Below, in pieces: positions 5,334 through 59,663 of a stretch of 64,000 nucleotides of DNA. The notes beneath the pieces are model-generated. The model searched no databases and was not told the DNA's origin. It saw only the letters and a program-made list of their open reading frames with translations. A program made the position numbers and the translations under genes. Position 1 is the first letter of the stretch. Each line of letters opens with the position of its first letter. Origin of the DNA: Candidatus Zambryskiibacteriota bacterium (GTDB taxonomy: Bacteria; Patescibacteriota; Minisyncoccia; Phycocordibacterales; DATDWN01); assembly GCA_023267045.1 (NCBI GenBank), contig JAHFOB010000001.1, positions 9,593 to 73,592 of the forward strand. Reading direction: 5' to 3'.

Positions 5334-6352
5334 AACTTCTTATATTTACTCAAAAAGTAGACAAAAATGATCCAACTCTAGGCTTTTTCCATACATGGAT
5401 AAAAGAGCTTTCAAAAAAGTCGGATTCTATTGCCGTCGTTTGTCTTGGGAAAGGTCAGTATGATTTGCCTAAAAACGTTACAGTTTATTCACTAGGTAAG
5501 GAAAGTGGTTTATCGAGACTCGGTTATTTGAAAAATCTTTTCCACTATCTTTATTTGATACGAGGTTCATATGACAAAGTTTTTGTTCACATGAACGAAG
5601 AGTACGTTTTACTCTGTGGACTTTATTGGAAGATAAAAAATATTCCAGTTTATTTCTGGCGTAATCATCCTAGGGGTAGTTTGGTCACCAGAGTTTCCGT
5701 TCTACTTTCCAAAAAAGTTTTTTGTACATCAAAAGATTCTTTTACTGCAAGATTTAGGAAAACAGTTATTATGCCAGCCGGCATTGATACAACCATTTTC
5801 AAACCAATAGAGGGTGTCGTTCGCAAGAAATATTCAGTTTGTATGGTCGGTAGAGTTTCTCCGATAAAAAATATTGATCTTGCTCTGCCAGCTATAAGGA
5901 TTTTGGTCTCATGGGGTTTTCAAGTATCACTTTCAATAATTGGTCCTATTCCAAAAAATGATTTGAAATATCTTGATAGTCTGAGGGCGTACGTAAAAAA
6001 TTACAATCTATCAAATTCAATTTCATTTCTTGAGGCAGTTTCTCCGCTAGAGTTAGCAAAAGTATATAGTAGTTACGAGGTAACGCTCAATTTGACTGAT
6101 ACTGGCTCGTTTGATAAAACAATCGTTGAGGCGGCGGCTTGTGGCTCAATACCTCTGGTTTCTAACAAGTCTTTCTCACTTTTACTTCCAGAGGTTTGTA
6201 TAATAGAAAAATCACAAGAAGCCGTATCAGAGGGTATCAAGAGGCTTTTGAGTGCTCACGAACAAATAGAAATCCAAAAAAATTTAGAAACTTTTGTTAA
6301 AGCACAAAGTCTCACGGGGCTGATCGATAAACTTATTGTAGAAATGAACTAA
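5330..6352 (+). CDS. Glycosyltransferase (GT-B-like)
   Basis: 340-aa ORF translationally coupled to its neighbours in the glycosylation operon. The C-terminal region is EAAACGSIPLVSN-like. Homology is weak. Confidence 0.4.
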   Translation: MKLLIFTQKVDKNDPTLGFFHTWIKELSKKSDSIAVVCLGKGQYDLPKNVTVYSLGKESGLSRLGYLKNLFHYLYLIRGSYDKVFVHMNEEYVLLCGLYWKIKNIPVYFWRNHPRGSLVTRVSVLLSKKVFCTSKDSFTARFRKTVIMPAGIDTTIFKPIEGVVRKKYSVCMVGRVSPIKNIDLALPAIRILVSWGFQVSLSIIGPIPKNDLKYLDSLRAYVKNYNLSNSISFLEAVSPLELAKVYSSYEVTLNLTDTGSFDKTIVEAAACGSIPLVSNKSFSLLLPEVCIIEKSQEAVSEGIKRLLSAHEQIEIQKNLETFVKAQSLTGLIDKLIVEMN

Positions 6353-52808: not shown

Positions 52809-53432
52809 ATGGGTAAAGCATTATTATTAAAATCAGAGATTGATAAAATAAAAAAGCTAAGAGAAACAGGGCATTCTCTGAATGAGATAAAAAGCGTTGT
52901 TAATCGAGGATATGGAACAGTGTATCGTTATATGAAAAATGTTCCTGTCATCTCAAAGTACCAAGATATTTTAAAATCTAAACAAGGTGGTAGTAGTGCG
53001 AGATCTCAAAAAAATTGGAACAATGCTAGAAAAAATGCCAGTAAAATTATAAATGATCTTAATTTCAAAGAAAAGATGGTAGCACTTTCTTGTCTTTATT
53101 GGGGTGAGGGTAATAAGACAGAATTAAGTTTAATTAATAGTGATCCTAGTTTGCTTAAAGTTTTTCTGTCATGTTTAAGAGAGTTGGGTATTAAAGAAAG
53201 TGATTTGAAAATAAGTTTGAGATTATTTGAAGATATAGATAGAAATAAAGCAACAGATTTTTGGTTGAAAATTCTACATCTACCAAACGGGAGTATTACA
53301 AAATATGACATAAAAAAAGGAAGTAAATCGGGAAAACTTAAATACGGTATGTGTAGAATAAGAGTGAAAAAATCTGACAAATATTTCAAATTGATTATGA
53401 GTATGATAGATTTAATTAAATTAAAGGTTTAA
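52809..53432 (+). CDS. HTH-containing DNA-binding protein with a single LAGLIDADG-like motif (putative free-standing homing-endonuclease-like)
   Basis: N-terminal HTH-like IKKLRETGHSLNEIKSVV. ALSCLYWGEGNKT resembles a degenerate LAGLIDADG helix, followed by a basic beta-rich region. Confidence 0.3.
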   Translation: MGKALLLKSEIDKIKKLRETGHSLNEIKSVVNRGYGTVYRYMKNVPVISKYQDILKSKQGGSSARSQKNWNNARKNASKIINDLNFKEKMVALSCLYWGEGNKTELSLINSDPSLLKVFLSCLRELGIKESDLKISLRLFEDIDRNKATDFWLKILHLPNGSITKYDIKKGSKSGKLKYGMCRIRVKKSDKYFKLIMSMIDLIKLKV

Positions 53433-53435
53433 AAT

Positions 53436-53507
53436 GCCGTCGTAGTTAAATGGATATAACTCCTTCGTCCTAAGAAGGAATTGACCGTTCGATTCGGTCC
53501 GATGGCA
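53436..53507 (+). tRNA. tRNA-Arg (anticodon CCT)
   Basis: Manual fold: acceptor GCCGTCG/CGATGGC, D-stem GTTA/TAAC, anticodon stem CCTTC/GAAGG with loop GTCCTAA, T-stem GACCG/CGGTC with loop TTCGATT, discriminator A. CCA is not encoded. Confidence 0.75.
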
Positions 53508-53537
53508 CAAAAAAAAGAGAGCTCCACTCTCTTTTAA

Positions 53538-53752
53538 AGGGGTGCTCCCTGTCTGGTCCCTACAAGTTCTCTGTTTTGAGATACTTTGTCCTCACCACGC
53601 TCTGGATGATAACCTAGGATTAACTCATCACCCAAGGTGGAAGCCTTTGCGAGTTACGCGCCTCGTTGGCGGTCTTGGATTTTCTCTCGTCAAGAGACTT
53701 ATGAGGGATCTGATCGCGCGATCAAGATTAACCTTAAAGGAGCACCCCGTTT
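53538..53752 (+). ncRNA. Candidate ~215-nt structured RNA closed by a terminal helix GGGGUGCUCC / GGAGCACCCC. Identity unknown; it could be a 6S-like or other regulatory RNA.
   Basis: GC about 48% against a ~33% background. The 10-bp terminal helix and internal imperfect complementary strands were read directly (UCCCUACAAGUUCUCU vs AGAGACUUAUGAGGGA). The track ORFs across it are low-complexity and lack start context. Confidence 0.3.
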
Positions 53753-53819
53753 CATTCTAAGGGTCTCTAATTTTTTGTCAACTTATTTACTTTTCTTCAT
53801 ATTTTGCTACTATAATCTC

Positions 53820-54056
53820 ATGTCACCAGAGGAAAGAGAGCTCCTTAAAAGAACAGCTGATCTTGCAGAAGATAACAATAAAATGTTGCGCTCGATGCAA
53901 CGTTCTATGCGTTTACAAAGGATAATGACTCTATTTTATTGGGTTTTTATAATAGGCTCGGCCATAGGAGCGTATTATCTTATTCAGCCATATATAGATA
54001 GTATTAAAGGGGCATATGGAGGTGCTAGTAGCGGTTTCAAGGATCTTTTTAACTAA
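53820..54056 (+). CDS. Small membrane protein (78 aa) with an N-terminal coiled/charged segment and one TM helix
   Basis: MSPEERELLKRTADLAEDNNKMLRSMQRSMRLQRIMTLFYWVFIIGSAIGAYYLI. The ATG is preceded by TATAAT. The upstream part of track ORF 53637 overlaps the GC-rich structured region and is probably not translated. Confidence 0.35.
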   Translation: MSPEERELLKRTADLAEDNNKMLRSMQRSMRLQRIMTLFYWVFIIGSAIGAYYLIQPYIDSIKGAYGGASSGFKDLFN

Positions 54057-54478
54057 AATTTAAGAGTTCGCCCTTTATAATTCAAAGCTTCTTTAACAAA
54101 TTTTTCCCCAAGTTTTGTGCTATGTTCTATCATGTGACAGTTTGCACAAAGTAAAAGACATTTTTGCATCTCGGCTTTAATTGAATCCCAACTTTTATTT
54201 GCAACACCCCCGATAATGAATTCTTTCTTTGAAGAGTCTTTGTGGTGAAATTGCATTGCTGCTTGATTCCCATGCCATCCACATTTCTCACACTTTCCTC
54301 CCAATAATTTAATAGCTGCGGCTTTAGACCGAAATCTTCGAATTTTTGTATTACATGAACCACAACGATTTCTTTGTCTATTTTGGTAATCTTTAAATGG
54401 TTTATTACACAATTTGCATATTGTCATATTGGTCAGTATAACATATATGGCTCTACCAAAATCAAGAATGGGTTGCAA
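54053..54478 (-). CDS. HNH endonuclease
   Basis: Cys4 zinc site plus the HNH core: CEKCGWHGNQAAMQFHHKD...N...LLCANCHMIEH. Confidence 0.7.
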   Translation of the reverse strand: MQPILDFGRAIYVILTNMTICKLCNKPFKDYQNRQRNRCGSCNTKIRRFRSKAAAIKLLGGKCEKCGWHGNQAAMQFHHKDSSKKEFIIGGVANKSWDSIKAEMQKCLLLCANCHMIEHSTKLGEKFVKEALNYKGRTLKF

Positions 54479-54503
54479 AATAGGTATTTTTTAGTAATAT
54501 ATC

Positions 54504-54579
54504 CATACCACATGCCGAGGTAACTCAGTTAGCAGAGTGCTTCCCTGAAGAGGAAGAAGTCGCCAGTGCAACTCTGGCC
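54504..54579 (+). tRNA. tRNA-Phe (anticodon GAA)
   Basis: Manual fold: acceptor GCCGAGG/CCTCGGC, D-stem ACTC/GAGT, anticodon stem CTTCC/GGAAG with loop CTGAAGA, T-stem GCCAG/CTGGC, discriminator A, and an encoded CCA. Confidence 0.8.
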
Positions 54580-56132
54580 CTCGGCACCATAATCCGACTT
54601 TCGTCGGAAGAACCAACGGATGCGTGGGACGCGCGAAGTGCGTCCCACGGAGTTCCGCCTGAATCTGCGAGGGAATCTGTCAAAAATGAATCTGAATTTG
54701 GAGTGCAAGCACTCACGGTTTTTTCGCGGAGGAGGAGGTTCGAGCCAAAGACTTTTTTGGCAGCAACCTTTTTATTCAAAAGGTTGCTATCCAATGCAAT
54801 TTTTTCCATATTCTGGGCTTCTTTTATCCATTCTGACATCGGTTCGAGCCAATGTTTTTGCTTTTGTTCATTCCGAGATATTTCTTCTTCCAGCGACTTT
54901 TTCTCGGATAACAATTTTGCTTTTTGTTCACGATATACTTCTTTTTCTACATCTTGGTCTAAATATCCATCTAAAAGTCGCTGGAGCTTCACAGTAATAT
55001 CTTTTATACGATTTTGATTTTTTAGAACAAAAGCAGAAACAGATTGGGCGGATTCCGTTTTGTCGTTTTCTAAACGACCGAACATATATTCCGCCCAATC
55101 TTGTGGCAAAGAAACTTTTTGAAGAAGTGATGAAATTTGTTCGTCCAAGACTTCCTGGCGAATACAGGGTTCAGGACACTTAATATCTCGTCGCTTTTTG
55201 GAACAGTGATAGTAAGTGTAATAATGTTCTTTACCACTGACTTGTTTCTTCACCCTGTATTCGCCAGTGATCATCATTCCGCAAGTTCCACAGGATAACA
55301 AACCACAATATGCTTGGGGTTCATTTTTCTGTTTGTGTCTTGGACGACCTCTTTGCTTCATCACTTCTTGGACTCTATCAAAAAGTTTCTTGTCCACGAT
55401 TGGCTCAAACTTTCCTTCATAGACTTCACCAGAATATCTAAAGTGTCCATAGTAAAAAGGATTAGACAGAATAAAAGTAGCTCTGGTTCTATGGATTCTC
55501 TTTCCGTGTTTTGTTAAAAGATTGTGCTTCGCCAAAAACATACCGATAGTATTAAGAGTTTGATTACCTTGTGAATACAGTTCGAACGCTTGTCTTATAA
55601 CAGGCGCGGATTTTTTGTCCACCACGATTGTCTTTGTTCTACTATCGTTTATATATCCCACTGGTGAAAGTCCTGGATATTCTCCGCGCCTAACTTTTTG
55701 GCGAAGTCCTCTTTTGGTATTTTCGGAAAGAGAATCCACATAGTATTTACTTTGTCCGAAAGCCATGTTGAGCATGAATTTACCTTGACTCGTAGAATCA
55801 CACCAAAAAGTAGGAAACTTCAAGCTCGCAAGTTTCCCTGTGTCGAGGAGGTATATTATTTTTCCACCATCAATACTATTTCTTGCGAGACGATCCGGAT
55901 GCCAAGAGAGGATAGAATCTGCATCGCCATTTTCGATACATCTCATCATTTCGTTGAAAATAGGACGACCTGGAATCTTGGCAGATTGTTTTTCTATAAA
56001 CTCAAGGGCGATGTTCAGATTTTCTCGCTTGGCATAGTCTCGCAATTCGTTGAGCTGTGCCTCAATCGAAAGAACTTGTTTGTCCTCGACATCTGTTGAC
56101 TTGCGAGCGTATAAAAAGAATTTTTGTTCCAT
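54525..56132 (-). CDS. Large serine recombinase (resolvase/integrase family)
   Basis: N-terminal catalytic domain FFLYARKSTDVEDKQVLSIEAQ (Ser nucleophile context) ... WHPDRLARN, a recombinase domain, and Cys-rich zinc-ribbon CGTCGMMITGEYRVKK...CSKKRRDIKC. M at 56132 is the likely start. The 3' end of the ORF runs through IR-A and antisense through tRNA-Phe with no stop until 54525, so the true C-terminus is uncertain. Confidence 0.75.
   Translation of the reverse strand: MEQKFFLYARKSTDVEDKQVLSIEAQLNELRDYAKRENLNIALEFIEKQSAKIPGRPIFNEMMRCIENGDADSILSWHPDRLARNSIDGGKIIYLLDTGKLASLKFPTFWCDSTSQGKFMLNMAFGQSKYYVDSLSENTKRGLRQKVRRGEYPGLSPVGYINDSRTKTIVVDKKSAPVIRQAFELYSQGNQTLNTIGMFLAKHNLLTKHGKRIHRTRATFILSNPFYYGHFRYSGEVYEGKFEPIVDKKLFDRVQEVMKQRGRPRHKQKNEPQAYCGLLSCGTCGMMITGEYRVKKQVSGKEHYYTYYHCSKKRRDIKCPEPCIRQEVLDEQISSLLQKVSLPQDWAEYMFGRLENDKTESAQSVSAFVLKNQNRIKDITVKLQRLLDGYLDQDVEKEVYREQKAKLLSEKKSLEEEISRNEQKQKHWLEPMSEWIKEAQNMEKIALDSNLLNKKVAAKKVFGSNLLLREKTVSACTPNSDSFLTDSLADSGGTPWDALRASHASVGSSDESRIMVPRARVALATSSSSGKHSAN
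54622..54756. repeat. Inverted repeat IR-A (~135 bp, left copy) flanking the serine recombinase gene
   Basis: About 85% identical to the reverse complement of 56185-56317. It contains the hairpins CGTGGGACGC-gcgaagt-GCGTCCCACG and GAGTGC-aa-GCACTC, and ends in a T-arm-like GGAGGAGGTTCGAGCC. Confidence 0.7.
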
Positions 56133-56184
56133 ATGTTTGTAGTATAGCAAAAATTCTTTTTGTAAAGAAAAGTAAAAATTGTAT

Positions 56185-56317
56185 TGGATTCGAACCTCCT
56201 CCTCCAAAACAAATTAGTGCGCGCTTGCGCGCCAGATTCAGATTCATTTTTGGCGGATTCCATCGCAGATTCAGGCGGGAACCCTTGGGATGCACTTCGT
56301 GCGTCCCACATTATGGC
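56185..56317. repeat. Inverted repeat IR-A' (right copy, about 50 bp upstream of the recombinase start)
   Basis: Reverse complement of 54622-54756. The hairpins are conserved with compensatory changes (GCGCGC-aa-GCGCGC against GAGTGC-aa-GCACTC). Confidence 0.7.
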
Positions 56318-56334
56318 TTCTTCAAAACCGATTT

Positions 56335-56575
56335 GTTCTATTTTGGTGTGTCTTTACGACTTCGCTCGAACTTATTTCATTAAAACTGTTTAAGTGGTGA
56401 ATCTGACAATGAATTCCGTCACGGCTCGGCATCCGCTCCAGAACACGCTGGAAAGCGTGTTCTTCCGCTTCTGCCTTACCGTGTCCGCCCTCGCACCCAT
56501 CGCTTCCAATCCTAAATCTGTTTTGCGCGGGATTTCTTTTTTCGGAATGGGCGATTGGTTCTCGGGCTACTTGCC
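56335..56575. repeat. Inverted repeat IR-B (~240 bp, left copy), GC-rich, with internal hairpin GAACACGCT-ggaa-AGCGTGTTC and a terminal hairpin plus T-tract
   Basis: Near-identical to the reverse complement of 59355-59598. The identical 61-aa track ORFs (56394-56579 + and 59347-59547 -) are a consequence of this repeat. Confidence 0.75.
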
Positions 56576-56611
56576 GTGACAAAAAATTAACCAAAATGTT
56601 ATACTTAAAAC

Positions 56612-58228
56612 ATGGATGAACAAACTCCTACTATTATTCCTCCCCCGATACCCCAGGAAGAACCTCAAAAAACTAAACAGCCATTATGGTTAGCGGTCTC
56701 AATTCTGGCTGCAGTTTTTGTAGTTGTCGGTAGTTATTTTATATATCAAAAACTAACGACAAAATCACAGATTCAGAATGTAAATTTTGTAAATATTGCT
56801 ACGACCACAGATCAATTTGCAAATTGGAAAACATATACCGATGAACAGTATAAATTTGAGTTTAAATATCCAGCTACACTTGAAGTTTTTAAAGATAATA
56901 CGGCGATTATTCACATTATTCATCCCGAAGATAAGGACGTAGATTTAAGTAAAACTGGGCCAGTAGATGGCATGTGGATACATGTTGTGGATAATACAGA
57001 TAAATTATCCGTCACTGATTGGTGGAATAAATACGGACCTTATACTCCAAAAAGAAATGGTACTGGACTTAAACCCGACACTTTTCCAATTAAGAATATG
57101 AGCGTGGGTAATTTAAACGGTATTTACATTGGTGGTTCAGAGGGTGTTTTATCGAATTACCTCATTTTGCCATATATGGATAAAATCCTTGAAATTAATG
57201 TAATGACTAAAGATTTCAAGGAAATTCTCTCTACTTTAAAATTACCAGAATCATTAACAAAAGATTGGCAAACCTACAGAAACGATGAGTTTAAAATTTT
57301 TGAAATAAAATATCCTGGAGGATGGGTAATTCAACAGGAAGATCCTTACCAGCTTATTTTATCAAGTGCTCCAAAAGAACAATATTTGAAAGATGTTGGT
57401 GTCGCTCCTTCTGGAAATATGTCAATAACCGTGTCAGAGGGTGTAAATTGCTCTAGTGATGATTTCAAAAGCCTTCTCGGTTTTACGAAGTCAAACATTT
57501 CAGTTAAAAGAGTTTGTGTTGATGGATTTCAGATCTCAGCAGTTATTTGGAATGATGATACGCAAATAATTTCTCATAAAGAACTACTGAATGAAATTAT
57601 TTCCACATTTAAATTTATTGAGAAAAAACGACTTAGTAAAGAAGAACTAGCAAACAGAATATTACTAACTTCAGAAAATATTCCTACTTACGCAAAATAT
57701 AATGAACCATATAAAAGCGGGAGTTTACCCTCAGCATGTACTGAAAAATTTAATTATGACGAGCCAAATAGTACAACTACTTATTCTAATACAAAATGGG
57801 GCATATCGTTTGGAGTTCCATATAATGTAAATTGGGGAAATAGTAAGTACAGAATAGATCCGTATGAAGAAATTGAGGTAAATAATAAATATAACAACGA
57901 TGTCTTATCTGCTATTTCATGGGGTTATATTAGTGGTGGTGAGGGATGTTCATGGGGAAGACAATATTTTGTTGATATTAAATCAAAAAAATCAGCGGAG
58001 GATCTTATGACATCAATGAAACCGGATAATCTTCCTTACGATATATTTCATGCTAAAATCGAGACAATAAATAACTTACAGGTTGTAAAATATAGTACTG
58101 CCGATATGTGTGCATATTACTATATAGTAGTTATTGGTAAAAAATATAATTATGAATTCACATCTTCATGTAATGGAAGTTTTGATGACGTTGAACCGGT
58201 AGTTAAAACAGTAAAACTACTTGATTAA
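56612..58228 (+). CDS. Secreted or membrane-anchored protein of unknown function (N-terminal TM/signal anchor, Pro-rich linker, ~480-aa extracytoplasmic domain)
   Basis: KQPLWLAVSILAAVFVVVGSYFIY anchor. No recognisable catalytic motif. Enclosed between the IR-B copies. Confidence 0.4.
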   Translation: MDEQTPTIIPPPIPQEEPQKTKQPLWLAVSILAAVFVVVGSYFIYQKLTTKSQIQNVNFVNIATTTDQFANWKTYTDEQYKFEFKYPATLEVFKDNTAIIHIIHPEDKDVDLSKTGPVDGMWIHVVDNTDKLSVTDWWNKYGPYTPKRNGTGLKPDTFPIKNMSVGNLNGIYIGGSEGVLSNYLILPYMDKILEINVMTKDFKEILSTLKLPESLTKDWQTYRNDEFKIFEIKYPGGWVIQQEDPYQLILSSAPKEQYLKDVGVAPSGNMSITVSEGVNCSSDDFKSLLGFTKSNISVKRVCVDGFQISAVIWNDDTQIISHKELLNEIISTFKFIEKKRLSKEELANRILLTSENIPTYAKYNEPYKSGSLPSACTEKFNYDEPNSTTTYSNTKWGISFGVPYNVNWGNSKYRIDPYEEIEVNNKYNNDVLSAISWGYISGGEGCSWGRQYFVDIKSKKSAEDLMTSMKPDNLPYDIFHAKIETINNLQVVKYSTADMCAYYYIVVIGKKYNYEFTSSCNGSFDDVEPVVKTVKLLD

Positions 58229-58272
58229 TAATTTGTTGCTTAAAAATTGGTATTTGATATAATGTCAGTAAT

Positions 58273-58755
58273 ATGGCTCGCGATGTACTAAATGCACAAC
58301 AAATAGCCGAATACTTCCTCTGGAAAGCGCAAAACGAGAAAAAGGCAATTACGAATAAGAAACTGCAGAAATTACTTTACTATGCTCAAGCATGGTCTTT
58401 GGTTTTGCGTGACAAAAAACTTTTCAGTGACAAAATTGAGGCGTGGGTACATGGGCCTGCTGTTCGTGATGTATATTTTGAATACAAAAAATTTGGCTTT
58501 GGGCCAATCACAAAAACTGTAAAGGAAAATGACTTAGAAAAAATTTCTATAGATACAAAAAAATTCCTCGATCAAGTTTGGTCTGTATATGGTAAAAAAG
58601 ATGCAGCTTATTTGGAATATCTTTCTCACTCTGAAACTCCTTGGCAAAAAGCCCGCGAAGGACTTGAACCACATATTGGGTCTGAAAATGAAATTTCTCC
58701 TAAAGACATGAAGGAATTTTACAGTTCTAAACTCACAACACAGAAACATACTTAA
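58273..58755 (+). CDS. Panacea-domain (DUF4065/SocA-like) protein, a putative antitoxin-type component
   Basis: ARDVLNAQQIAEYFLWKAQ...ITNKKLQKLLYYAQAWSLVL...AWVHGPAVRDVY matches the DUF4065/Panacea core. Three nucleotides separate it from the next ORF. Confidence 0.45.
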   Translation: MARDVLNAQQIAEYFLWKAQNEKKAITNKKLQKLLYYAQAWSLVLRDKKLFSDKIEAWVHGPAVRDVYFEYKKFGFGPITKTVKENDLEKISIDTKKFLDQVWSVYGKKDAAYLEYLSHSETPWQKAREGLEPHIGSENEISPKDMKEFYSSKLTTQKHT

Positions 58756-58758
58756 ACT

Positions 58759-59187
58759 ATGACAATACCATCACCGGACGAGAAACTTCCAGAAAGTCCA
58801 ATACCATTGACCGCTGTTGAAATTCCACAACCTGAAGAACCGCCAGAAGCGAAACCTTTTCTGATATCTTTCGAAAAGTATAACGATAAGGAGTGCCAGC
58901 TAGACGGAATGGAGAGCAAAATGGCTAAAAAAGCTTTTAAAACTATTCGTGATATTGGTGTAAATATAAGAGACGAAAGCGATTTTGGTAAATATTTACC
59001 AAAATTAGAAGTTGTCCCTATAGAAAATAGTGGAGATTACAGAAAATTATACAAAGGACTAACAGATATGCCAGATGTTGAAGTGAAAGAAGCAAAAATT
59101 GATCGTCATACAGGTCGATTATTCTTTTTCTTGGTAGGTAAAATTTTTCATATTATCGCGGTAAGAGAAAGTCATTACCAAACATAA
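58759..59187 (+). CDS. Hypothetical protein with a RelE/ParE/Gp49-like C-terminal region; putative toxin partner
   Basis: C-terminal KIDRHTGRLFFFLVGKIFHIIAVRESHY resembles the RelE/ParE-superfamily C-terminal strand-helix. The Pro-rich N-terminal extension is unusual. Tightly coupled to the upstream Panacea gene. Confidence 0.25.
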   Translation: MTIPSPDEKLPESPIPLTAVEIPQPEEPPEAKPFLISFEKYNDKECQLDGMESKMAKKAFKTIRDIGVNIRDESDFGKYLPKLEVVPIENSGDYRKLYKGLTDMPDVEVKEAKIDRHTGRLFFFLVGKIFHIIAVRESHYQT

Positions 59188-59354
59188 AAAGCACAGCAGT
59201 TTACTTGTAGCCTCGGACATATTCCGTTTTGGGCGTCGTCACATAACTACAAAATGATACATTACCACTAGCGCAAAGGAATGTCTGAGGCGAATGATTA
59301 TGTTAGAGTAAAGATATAGGTAGGTAGTACAGTAGTTTGAATTCCGTCAGTTTC

Positions 59355-59598
59355 TCCCTTTAAGGAGAAACCCGCCCGAGAACCAATCGCCCATTCCGAA
59401 AAAAGAAATCCCGCGCAAAACAGATTTAGGATTGGAAGCGATGGGTGCGAGGGCGGACACGGTAAGGCAGAAGCGGAAGAACACGCTTTCCAGCGTGTTC
59501 TGGAGCGGATGCCGAGCCGTGACGGAATTCATTGTCAGATTCACCACTTAAACAGTTTTAATGAAATAAGTTCGAGCGAAGTCGTAAAGACACACCAT
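59355..59598. repeat. Inverted repeat IR-B' (right copy)
   Basis: Reverse complement of 56335-56575. The match breaks at TTCTCGGGC on both sides. Confidence 0.75.
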
Positions 59599-59663
59599 AA
59601 TCAAAAACCATCCTGAGTTTATCGAAGGATGGTTTTTTGATTGCGGTGCCAAATATGGAAGTT

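Follow-up and report, generated by a model that had tools for sequence, protein, structure and literature searches.

The window analyzed here is a 64,000-nucleotide stretch of DNA from a Candidatus Zambryskiibacteriota bacterium (contig JAHFOB010000001.1), and all coordinates refer to it. It contains a unit of ~5 kb (54590-59597), consisting of a recombinase module and an adjoining cargo module, that is placed between a tRNA-Phe gene and that gene's own terminator. The recombinase gene is bracketed by an inverted repeat, IR-A, whose two arms of ~140-165 bp each run from the tRNA discriminator/CCA core to an inward GGTTCGA motif. A first-pass annotation, made from the letters of the window, had drawn attention to hairpins in this repeat. 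Alignments of related arms indicate that base pairing in the hairpins, and not sequence alone, is under selection family-wide, at the expense of the encoded peptide. The model that we favor, with moderate confidence in it as a whole, is that of a tRNA-inserted serine-recombinase element that would cross over at the core, with paired inverted arms, and with one of the arm hairpins (hairpin 2) serving as a shielding terminator.

The inserted unit, its recombinase and its relatives

IR-A aligns without gaps over 120 nt (54624-54743 against 56309-56190), at 82.5% identity (E 2e-30), and has only two copies in the window. The inverted repeat reported in the first-pass annotation is thus real, and longer than had been noted: it extends outward to the tRNA CCA core (54585-54589 and 56344-56348), the outer 35-39 nt of the window arms being too diverged to align. 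Inward, about 16 nt more are common to both arms (AAAATTGyATTGGAT), across an in-frame indel of 45 nt. The left arm spans 54590-54746 and the right arm 56187-56348. The left arm holds hairpin 3 (TCCGAC-tttc-GTCGGA, 54593-54608), which adjoins the core and differs in sequence among elements; hairpin 1 (54624-54648), with a G+C-rich stem of 11 bp and a 3-nt loop, in the codons W-D-A-L-R-A-S-H; and hairpin 2 (54701-54714). In the right arm, hairpin 2 is found at 56219-56232 and hairpin 1 (TTGGGATGCAC-ttc-GTGCGTCCCAC) at 56285-56309. The similarity of the two window arms stops exactly at the outer edge of hairpin 1. A further hairpin, hairpin 0 (AGCAACCTTTT-tattc-AAAAGGTTGCT, 54762-54788), is situated inside the recombinase gene, within the 45 nt that are missing from the upstream arm.

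The recombinase gene (54525-56135, minus strand, 536 aa) begins with an ATG at 56135 and runs through the left arm of IR-A and the antisense strand of tRNA-Phe to a stop at 54525. Its translation contains the Pfam domains Resolvase (PF00239, 1.6e-21, residues 7-152), Recombinase (PF07508, 2.6e-14) and Zn_ribbon_recom (PF13408, 3.7e-8), as well as the serine nucleophile motif YARKST. Its relatives in the PDB are the A118 integrase, aligned over residues 39-201 of that protein, and SPbeta SprA/YokA. The alignment to known large serine recombinases stops at residue ~417-428 of 536, leaving an extra C-terminal region of ~100 residues, and the NCBIfam models CcrB, CcrC and XisF give 127, 83 and 83 bits, far short of the 900, 900 and 375 that they demand. 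By these comparisons, the protein belongs to the large serine recombinases, and to a distinct clade among them. An IS607 serine transposase was rejected (22.5 bits against a cut-off of 110). An insertion sequence with terminal inverted repeats was rejected as well, because the cores that flank IR-A are inverted (CACCA...TGGTG), with no direct duplication, and because a serine recombinase would, on mechanistic grounds, be unable to excise DNA between inverted sites.

The first-pass annotation had overlooked that the arm is protein-coding. The left arm codes, on its minus strand, for the last ~40 codons of the recombinase (SNLLLREKTVSACTPNSDSFLTDSLADSGGTPWDALRASH..., with ...FGSNLLLREKTVSACTPNSDSFLTDSLADSGGTPWDALRASH...), and the plus strand of the right arm keeps an open reading frame (ORF; 56184-56393) for a near-identical tail peptide (DSNLLLQNKLVRACAPDSDSFLADSIADSGGNPWDALRASH). 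The ratio of nonsynonymous to synonymous differences (pN/pS) between the two window arms is 0.43 (40 codons). In the family, the reading frame is open in 73 of 73 arms and the indels are multiples of 3. On this evidence, translation of the downstream arm yields the family-specific C-terminal tail of the recombinase.

Three junctions were compared in 12 loci and in the window: J1, between the tRNA and IR-A; J2, between IR-A and a conserved sequence X, in inverted orientation; and J3, between X and the host DNA. X is itself a repeat (IR-B), with a left arm at 56340-56567, identical to the right arm over 56344-56567 (224 nt), and a right arm at 59374-59601 that ends in ...GTTCGAGCGAAGTCGTAAAGACA-CACCA. 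In the window, the core of J1 is the CACCA that ends tRNA-Phe(GAA), the integration target (54514-54589, plus strand; ARAGORN, and Rfam tRNA at 62 bits). That of J2, an attP-like junction, is TGGTG at 56344-56348, i.e., CACCA on the minus strand, and that of the attR-like J3 is at 59593-59597. The only sequence common to J1, J2 and J3 is a core of 3-6 nt at the tRNA discriminator/CCA, tRNA positions 72-76 (CAC, CACCA, CTCCA or GTACCA). In L004, L008, L044 and L060 the common core is reduced to CAC, which is consistent with a crossover at the discriminator and C74. In all junctions compared, the X-end base equals the tRNA discriminator. The host DNA at J3 forms a terminator hairpin both in the window and in L001, L004, L008, L044 and L047; in the window, this hairpin with its T-run (AAAAACCATCC...GGATGGTTTTT, 59603-59637, plus strand) is most likely the native terminator of tRNA-Phe, pushed ~5 kb away by the insertion.

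The window unit is bounded by hybrid junctions in direct orientation, the 10-nt repeat CACCATAATC at 54585-54594, its attL-like left boundary, and at 59593-59602. It follows from the host terminator beyond J3 that 54590-59597 sits between tRNA-Phe and its terminator. To judge from the sequences, a serine integrase that inserted the unit by conservative site-specific recombination would leave junctions laid out in this way, and IR-A belongs to a site-specific recombination system. In the model we favor, the recombinase would exchange strands at the discriminator/CCA core. Recombination of J1 with J3 would excise the unit, as a circle carrying two inverted attP-type sites in a layout like that of the 2-micron plasmid, and recombination of J1 with J2 would flip the recombinase segment.

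The first-pass annotation had proposed the hairpins as recombination sites. This proposal stands in so far as the repeat is assigned to a site-specific recombination system; the hairpins themselves, though, are probably not crossover sites, because the only sequence common to the junctions is the core at the outer end of the arms, and because loop length and hairpin position vary among subfamilies, a poor fit to a fixed 2-bp crossover.

Homologues of the recombinase are numerous, 7,949 having been recovered. We fetched 80 genome loci (L001-L080), all from uncultured-genome assemblies and mostly labelled as lineages of Patescibacteria/candidate phyla radiation (CPR). Inverted repeats of 115-185 nt stand on either side of the gene in about 60 of these 80. 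Within a single locus the two copies mostly show 95-100% identity, as against ~70% for copies of different loci, and at least 12 loci besides the window have the two-pair layout, with a second repeat pair beside IR-A. The arm always ends outward in ...TGGTG or ...TGGAG, which is how a tRNA 3' end reads on the opposite strand. A tRNA or transfer-messenger RNA (tmRNA) 3' end, of 25 kinds, adjoins the arm at the 3' side of the recombinase in 57 of 72 loci, and the opposite arm adjoins X (TGTCTTTACGACTTCGCTCGAAC...). The tRNA lies on the 5' side of the gene in ~8 loci, and X on its 3' side in 2.

These loci yielded some further observations. In L042 (3701-5616) and L045 (34-2022), both arms of the recombinase segment adjoin tRNA sequences, with no X adjacent, which suggests that an internal attP-like site may have recombined with a second tRNA gene to give a chromosomal rearrangement. 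L047 has a third inverted repeat pair (1304-1429 and 5535-5675, 72% identical) outside the element, beside tRNA-Leu and tRNA-Gly, that appears to be what is left of an earlier insertion enclosing the present one. At least 15 contigs of metagenome-assembled genomes (MAGs) stop inside the upstream arm (e.g., L002, L006, L009, L019, L022, L036, L038, L054, L062 and L066). The perfect repeats of 115-185 nt systematically break MAG assemblies beside tRNA genes. Any long perfect repeat has this effect, and such contig ends do not by themselves show that both orientations coexist in one population.

The recombinase segment occurs in both orientations among near-identical elements. L081 and L082 are 98.5-99.7% identical, and in one of them the segment is inverted relative to X and the cargo. 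The two polymorphisms that tell their arms apart keep their place at the gene end, whereas the outer flank is exchanged. Because these polymorphisms travel with the gene, the exchange point lies between hairpin 2 and the core. The differences between the arms of a locus are spread over the whole arm and are uninformative on the exchange point. The tails of homologues are likewise of two types, antisense-tRNA (...GFEPTT...CSTN) or X-encoded (...LYDSARTYFIKNS), the latter in 19 of 120 homologues.

Base pairing in the repeat arms

It had been claimed in the first-pass annotation that the hairpins of the two window arms differ by paired substitutions. For hairpin 2 we confirm this. GAGTGC-aa-GCACTC (54701-54714, plus strand) corresponds to GCGCGC-aa-GCGCGC (56232-56219, minus strand), and two of the six pairs have changed on both sides with Watson-Crick pairing kept (A-T to C-G and T-A to C-G). 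For hairpin 1 the claim does not hold, as it compared the plus strands of both arms, which are non-homologous. On homologous strands, GTGGGACGCGCGAAGTGCGTCCCAC and GTGGGACGCACGAAGTGCATCCCAA, there are three differences, all of them one-sided: a G.T to A-T change, a C-G to C.A change (pairing as a wobble on the opposite strand alone), and a C to A change at the terminal position.

The selection on structure that the annotation had postulated, and the covariation that it expected among homologous copies, are found at the level of the family, in both hairpins and in 34-37 distinct arms. For hairpin 1 we used an alignment that is anchored on the codons W-x-A-L-x-A-x-H and independent of structure (34 distinct arms). 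Bases are paired in 92.2% of cells, and two-sided changes occur in 7 of the 11 pairs (53 cells). Covariation scores 0.471, compared with 0.161 in shuffles, where 0 of 500 reach the observed value, and with at most 0.128 when the partners are slid. A MAFFT alignment of 37 whole arms gives 91.3% paired cells for hairpin 1 and 80.8% for hairpin 2, with an overall covariation of 0.307 against 0.100 in shuffles. Because the arms share ancestry, and those of one locus are not independent of each other, the shuffle counts are not probabilities, and the slid-partner controls are the fairer ones.

The peptides tell the same story. WDALRASH, WAALCAAH, WACLRHAH and WALLRNAH, all encoded by hairpin 1, each keep the palindrome. 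Conservation as protein only is ruled out, since amino acids change in pairs that keep the stems. Hairpin 2 occurs as at least 12 perfectly paired stems, e.g., GCGCCC/GGGCGC, GCCCCGCC/GGCGGGGC, GCACCGCC/GGCGGTGC and GCCGCGC/GCGCGGC, with loops of 2-4 nt and a position that shifts relative to the reading frame. The outer pairs of hairpin 0 differ pairwise between loci (GCAACC/GGTTGC, CAGACC/GGTCTG, GCGACC/GGTCGC and GTAACC/GGTTAC), and hairpin 3 also varies in a paired fashion. The hairpin 1 stems contain 311 Watson-Crick pairs as against 16 G.T and 2 A.C pairs. Thirteen of the 16 G.T pairs come from the outermost T.G pair, which is formed by the invariant Trp codon. The ratio of G.U to A.C pairs therefore gives no decision as to the acting strand: it is 16 to 2, but 4 to 2 without the outermost pair.

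A cis-acting structured RNA had also been suggested. The pairing of the hairpins is indeed kept, but a larger fold is not: across the 37 arms RNAalifold retained only hairpin 1 and supported no long-range helix, and the long-range helices seen when a single sequence is folded in the tRNA sense are not conserved. A search of Rfam at E<=5 over 53300-57300 returned tRNA-Phe only, and ARAGORN found no tRNA or tmRNA in the arms.

The description of the arm ends as T-arm-like is correct as to sequence and misleading as to origin. Both arms end inward in GGAGGAGGAGGTTCGA(G/A)(C/T)C (54728-54746, and the reverse complement of 56187-56205), which in the left arm reads GGAGGAGGAGGTTCGAGCC. However, the ends are not a tRNA remnant. 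GGAGGAGGAGGTTCGA is the antisense of (G)SNLLL codons, near-invariant in the family, and forms a sharp inner boundary of the repeat, and no complementary 3' T-stem partner follows GGTTCGA. A tRNA or tmRNA remnant, suggested by GGTTCGA and the G+C-rich flank, is ruled out by ARAGORN, Rfam and the analysis of coding and junctions. The boundary also holds the 8-mer GCTCGAAC, the antisense of the T-loop-like GTTCGAGC. All four copies of this 8-mer in the 64 kb (54738-54745, 54842-54849, 56364-56371 and 59570-59577) are within the element; 0.7 copies would be expected in the window, and none of 100 shuffles has as many as 4. The 8-mer may serve the recombinase as a recognition motif.

Function of the hairpins

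Hairpin 2 is followed by a directional U-tract, typical of a terminator, which the first-pass annotation had overlooked. A terminator scan flags it in both window arms, facing inward: GAGTGCAAGCACTC plus ACGGTTTTTT on the plus strand of the left arm, resembling a terminator for transcripts that leave the tRNA in the direction of the recombinase gene, and GCGCGCAAGCGCGC plus ACTAATTTGT on the minus strand of the right arm, for transcripts entering from the X side. Under the same rule, hairpin 2 of distinct arms is flagged inward in 41 of 56 cases and outward in 4 of 56, and a U-run of at least 4 follows it in 68% inward compared with 16% outward. Hairpin 2 thus looks like an inward-facing intrinsic terminator. 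As such, it would shield the recombinase segment from outside transcription, on one side from tRNA read-through, antisense to the recombinase gene, and on the other from read-through from X and the cargo into the recombinase promoter. It would also stand in for the tRNA terminator displaced by the insertion; an inward terminator at the inner ends of the arms makes sense because the element parts the tRNA from its native terminator. Hairpin 1 we provisionally take to be a second RNA-level block or a 3'-end hairpin; alternatively, it may be a DNA or cruciform signal for the recombinase.

A number of points weigh against this model. The proposed termination is read from sequence alone; the U-tract of hairpin 2 often begins 3-5 nt past the stem, and it is missing in two subfamilies (those with LANREAR and RLASRAVRGEP tails). 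Hairpin 1, the best conserved of the hairpins, has no directional U-tract (18 of 48 inward, 15 of 48 outward) and stays outside the model. Its outer pairs TGGG/CCCA are near-invariant while the inner five covary, a pattern that could equally fit recognition by a protein of sequence plus shape. The exchange interval of L081/L082 contains the core, but also hairpins 1 and 3. The window arms of IR-A are 82.5% identical and those of X are identical, a difference for which the model does not account. Neither the empty site nor the circular form was observed: an exact search of metagenome contigs for the reconstructed empty site (...GGCACCA of tRNA-Phe followed by TAATCAAAAACCATCC of the terminator) found none, although absence there says little. 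Lastly, recombination between attL-type and attP-type sites is not, to our knowledge, a reaction of canonical serine integrases, and RecA, or integration via either attP, may account for the flip instead.

The hairpins might instead act as DNA, as palindromic or cruciform accessory sites, or with hairpin 1 as the site of exchange, bound by the recombinase or a partner and controlling synapsis, inversion or integration, much like the res or enhancer sites of small serine recombinases. In line with this, the hairpin 1 stems are nearly always perfectly Watson-Crick on both strands, their outer TGGG/CCCA stem is near-invariant while inner pairs covary, and the hairpins are present in both arms of a recombinase-bounded repeat. 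The edge of hairpin 1 is where the similarity of the window arms stops, the L081/L082 exchange interval takes it in, and GCTCGAAC is confined to the element. Yet the core common to the junctions is at the CCA end, 35-45 nt from hairpin 1, and we know of no accessory sites in large serine recombinases. The loops are variable (2-7 nt), that of hairpin 1 has an odd 3 nt, and hairpin 2 shifts against the frame, so the hairpins misfit a site at which a symmetric dimer would make a 2-bp crossover. An operator acting as duplex DNA would need no palindromic central 5 bp, and the inward-only U-tract of hairpin 2 is left unexplained. We regard action as DNA as unlikely, but with enough in its favor to be taken seriously. 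An RNA function of another kind, namely that the tRNA-sense arm is a non-coding tRNA-trailer RNA, released by 3' processing and antisense to the 3' end of the recombinase mRNA, and reducing expression of the recombinase whenever its gene faces the tRNA, with orientation thus setting the recombinase level, seems to us clearly improbable. Folding does favor the tRNA-sense strand (-71.2 kcal/mol, z -4.3) over the coding strand (-55.6 kcal/mol, z -3.6), the arm begins right at the tRNA 3' end, and the loci are biased in orientation (57 with the tRNA at the gene's 3' side, ~8 with it at the 5' side and 2 with X at the 3' side); but no helix beyond hairpin 1 was retained in the 37 arms, no Rfam family was matched, and the 4 to 2 count of G.U and A.C pairs gives no clear signal of strand.

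It is also conceivable that there is no structural selection, and that template switching in quasi-palindromes and gene conversion between the arms keep the palindromes perfect as a by-product. The arms do evolve in concert, being 95-100% identical within a locus, their differences are often runs of 3-5 adjacent bases, as in patch conversion, and the stems are unusually perfect. Such a process, however, would not account for hairpins at equivalent places in every subfamily despite differing sequences, loops and frame positions, for the direction of the U-tract, for the G+C-richness of the hairpins (the arm has ~55% G+C in a genome of ~35%), or for four palindromes in one coding region, and we hold it to be very improbable. 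We give next to no credence to a decayed repeat derived from tRNA or tmRNA, or to purely protein-coding conservation with incidental hairpins. For these speak the T-loop-like GGTTCGA and a translated arm with a pN/pS of 0.43. They are contradicted by the null results of ARAGORN and Rfam in the arms and the lack of a 3' T-stem partner, by coordinated amino-acid pairs that preserve the pairing and synonymous sites that are used to keep pairs, and by the position of the tail beyond the region alignable to known large serine recombinases.

Other features, known systems and meaning

The cargo segment (56568-59373, plus strand, ~2.8 kb) contains genes for a 538-aa PsbP_2-like protein (56612-58228) and a SocA/Panacea antitoxin-like protein (58273-58755, 2e-20), downstream of which lies an ORF of 142 aa (58759-59187) without a Pfam match. 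The latter two (58273-59187) may be a toxin-antitoxin pair that stabilizes the element. In X, only ~46 nt next to the core are kept between loci; the remainder is G+C-rich and folds well (z -3.7), and X matches no Rfam family. A 17-nt palindrome (94% complementary; 56110-56126 and 56148-56164) brackets the recombinase start codon at 56135, and a self-complementary stretch of ~70 nt is found at the equivalent position in L004, L005, L011, L043, L048 and L060; the palindrome could be an operator or a translational hairpin. Just outside the element, among tRNA-Arg and tRNA-Phe genes, are two ORFs with no Pfam match, 52809-53432 (207 aa) and 54053-54478 (141 aa), the latter Cys-rich with CxxC and HH motifs.

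The enzyme has the same three domains as that of known serine-integrase elements (phage A118/LI integrase, SPbeta SprA and SCCmec Ccr), and, as there, the hybrid junctions share a very short core, as a 2-bp crossover predicts. The present element differs in that many different tRNA and tmRNA genes, rather than one locus, offer it a generic 3' end as target; in that a second, inverted copy of the attachment region places the recombinase gene and the cargo each between long inverted repeats; and in that the recombinase reading frame crosses the attachment site, has ~100 extra C-terminal residues, and carries structural hairpins in its coding tail. No directionality factor was identified in the element. 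The GTTCGAGC motif of X is ~4 nt farther from the core than the T-loop motif of the tRNA, a spacing that presumably resembles the attP/attB difference described for LI integrase.

When excised, the element would be a circle of two unique segments and two site-bearing inverted repeats, like the yeast 2-micron plasmid (Flp/FRT in two 599-bp inverted repeats) and flip-flop replicons, which also exist in both orientations. Here, however, a serine recombinase takes the place of a tyrosine recombinase, the element lives in bacteria and is seen integrated at tRNA genes, it has neither a replication gene nor an evident role in amplification, and the circle is a prediction. With invertible segments (Hin/Gin/Pin invertases, invertons and shufflons) it shares inverted repeats, both orientations, a serine recombinase at the locus, and a protein C-terminus that changes with orientation (antisense-tRNA or X-encoded tail), these alternative tails looking like by-products rather than functional variants. 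It departs from them in having repeats of 115-185 bp rather than ~26 bp and a large recombinase inside the flipped segment, the whole unit being a mobile insertion.

As in the islands and prophages that target tRNA genes (with tyrosine integrases; tycheposons), insertion is at a tRNA or tmRNA 3' end and leaves the tRNA intact. Such islands duplicate the 3' part of the tRNA as a direct repeat, and each is tied to a single tRNA, whereas here only 3-6 nt are shared and 25 tRNA kinds are used. Hairpin 2, for its part, resembles a Rho-independent terminator in its G+C-rich stem, short loop and one-direction U-tract, and differs in being inside an ORF of the opposite strand, with a U-tract that is often offset and absent from some subfamilies. 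Among tycheposons and related cryptic elements, 910 of 937 were with tyrosine integrases (bioRxiv 10.1101/2020.12.28.424599). The literature searched contained no description of this element and no paper combining "Patescibacteria" with "large serine recombinase", and a paper on tRNA introns in Patescibacteria does not mention recombinases. The element type appears to be widespread in Patescibacteria and undescribed.

A bolder interpretation can be formulated, which we think rather improbable. In it, a very abundant, Patescibacteria-specific family of large serine recombinases would attach to the chromosome at the universal tRNA 3' end, the discriminator in the crossover dinucleotide would key each lineage to tRNAs with a given discriminator, two inverted attP sites would make the element self-flipping in the manner of the 2-micron plasmid, and the recombinase would recognize the hairpins, hairpin 1 above all, by their shape, as DNA (cruciform) or as RNA. 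If this were true, the site choice or directionality of a serine recombinase would depend on nucleic-acid structure written in its own C-terminal coding sequence.

The mobile elements of Patescibacteria (CPR bacteria) are poorly characterized, and the present one is found in most of the 80 loci, from many candidate phyla. If the model that we favor is confirmed, a serine integrase accepting at least 25 tRNA and tmRNA 3' ends would be unusual, and relevant to the search for broad or re-targetable integrases. The doubled, inverted attachment region would put the recombinase gene and the cargo on flip-flop segments, and the arrangement in L042 and L045 would suggest that chromosomes may be rearranged between tRNA genes. 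The arms would then also be a clear case of dual coding, in which the need to keep a hairpin in DNA or RNA makes the amino acids of the recombinase tail covary.

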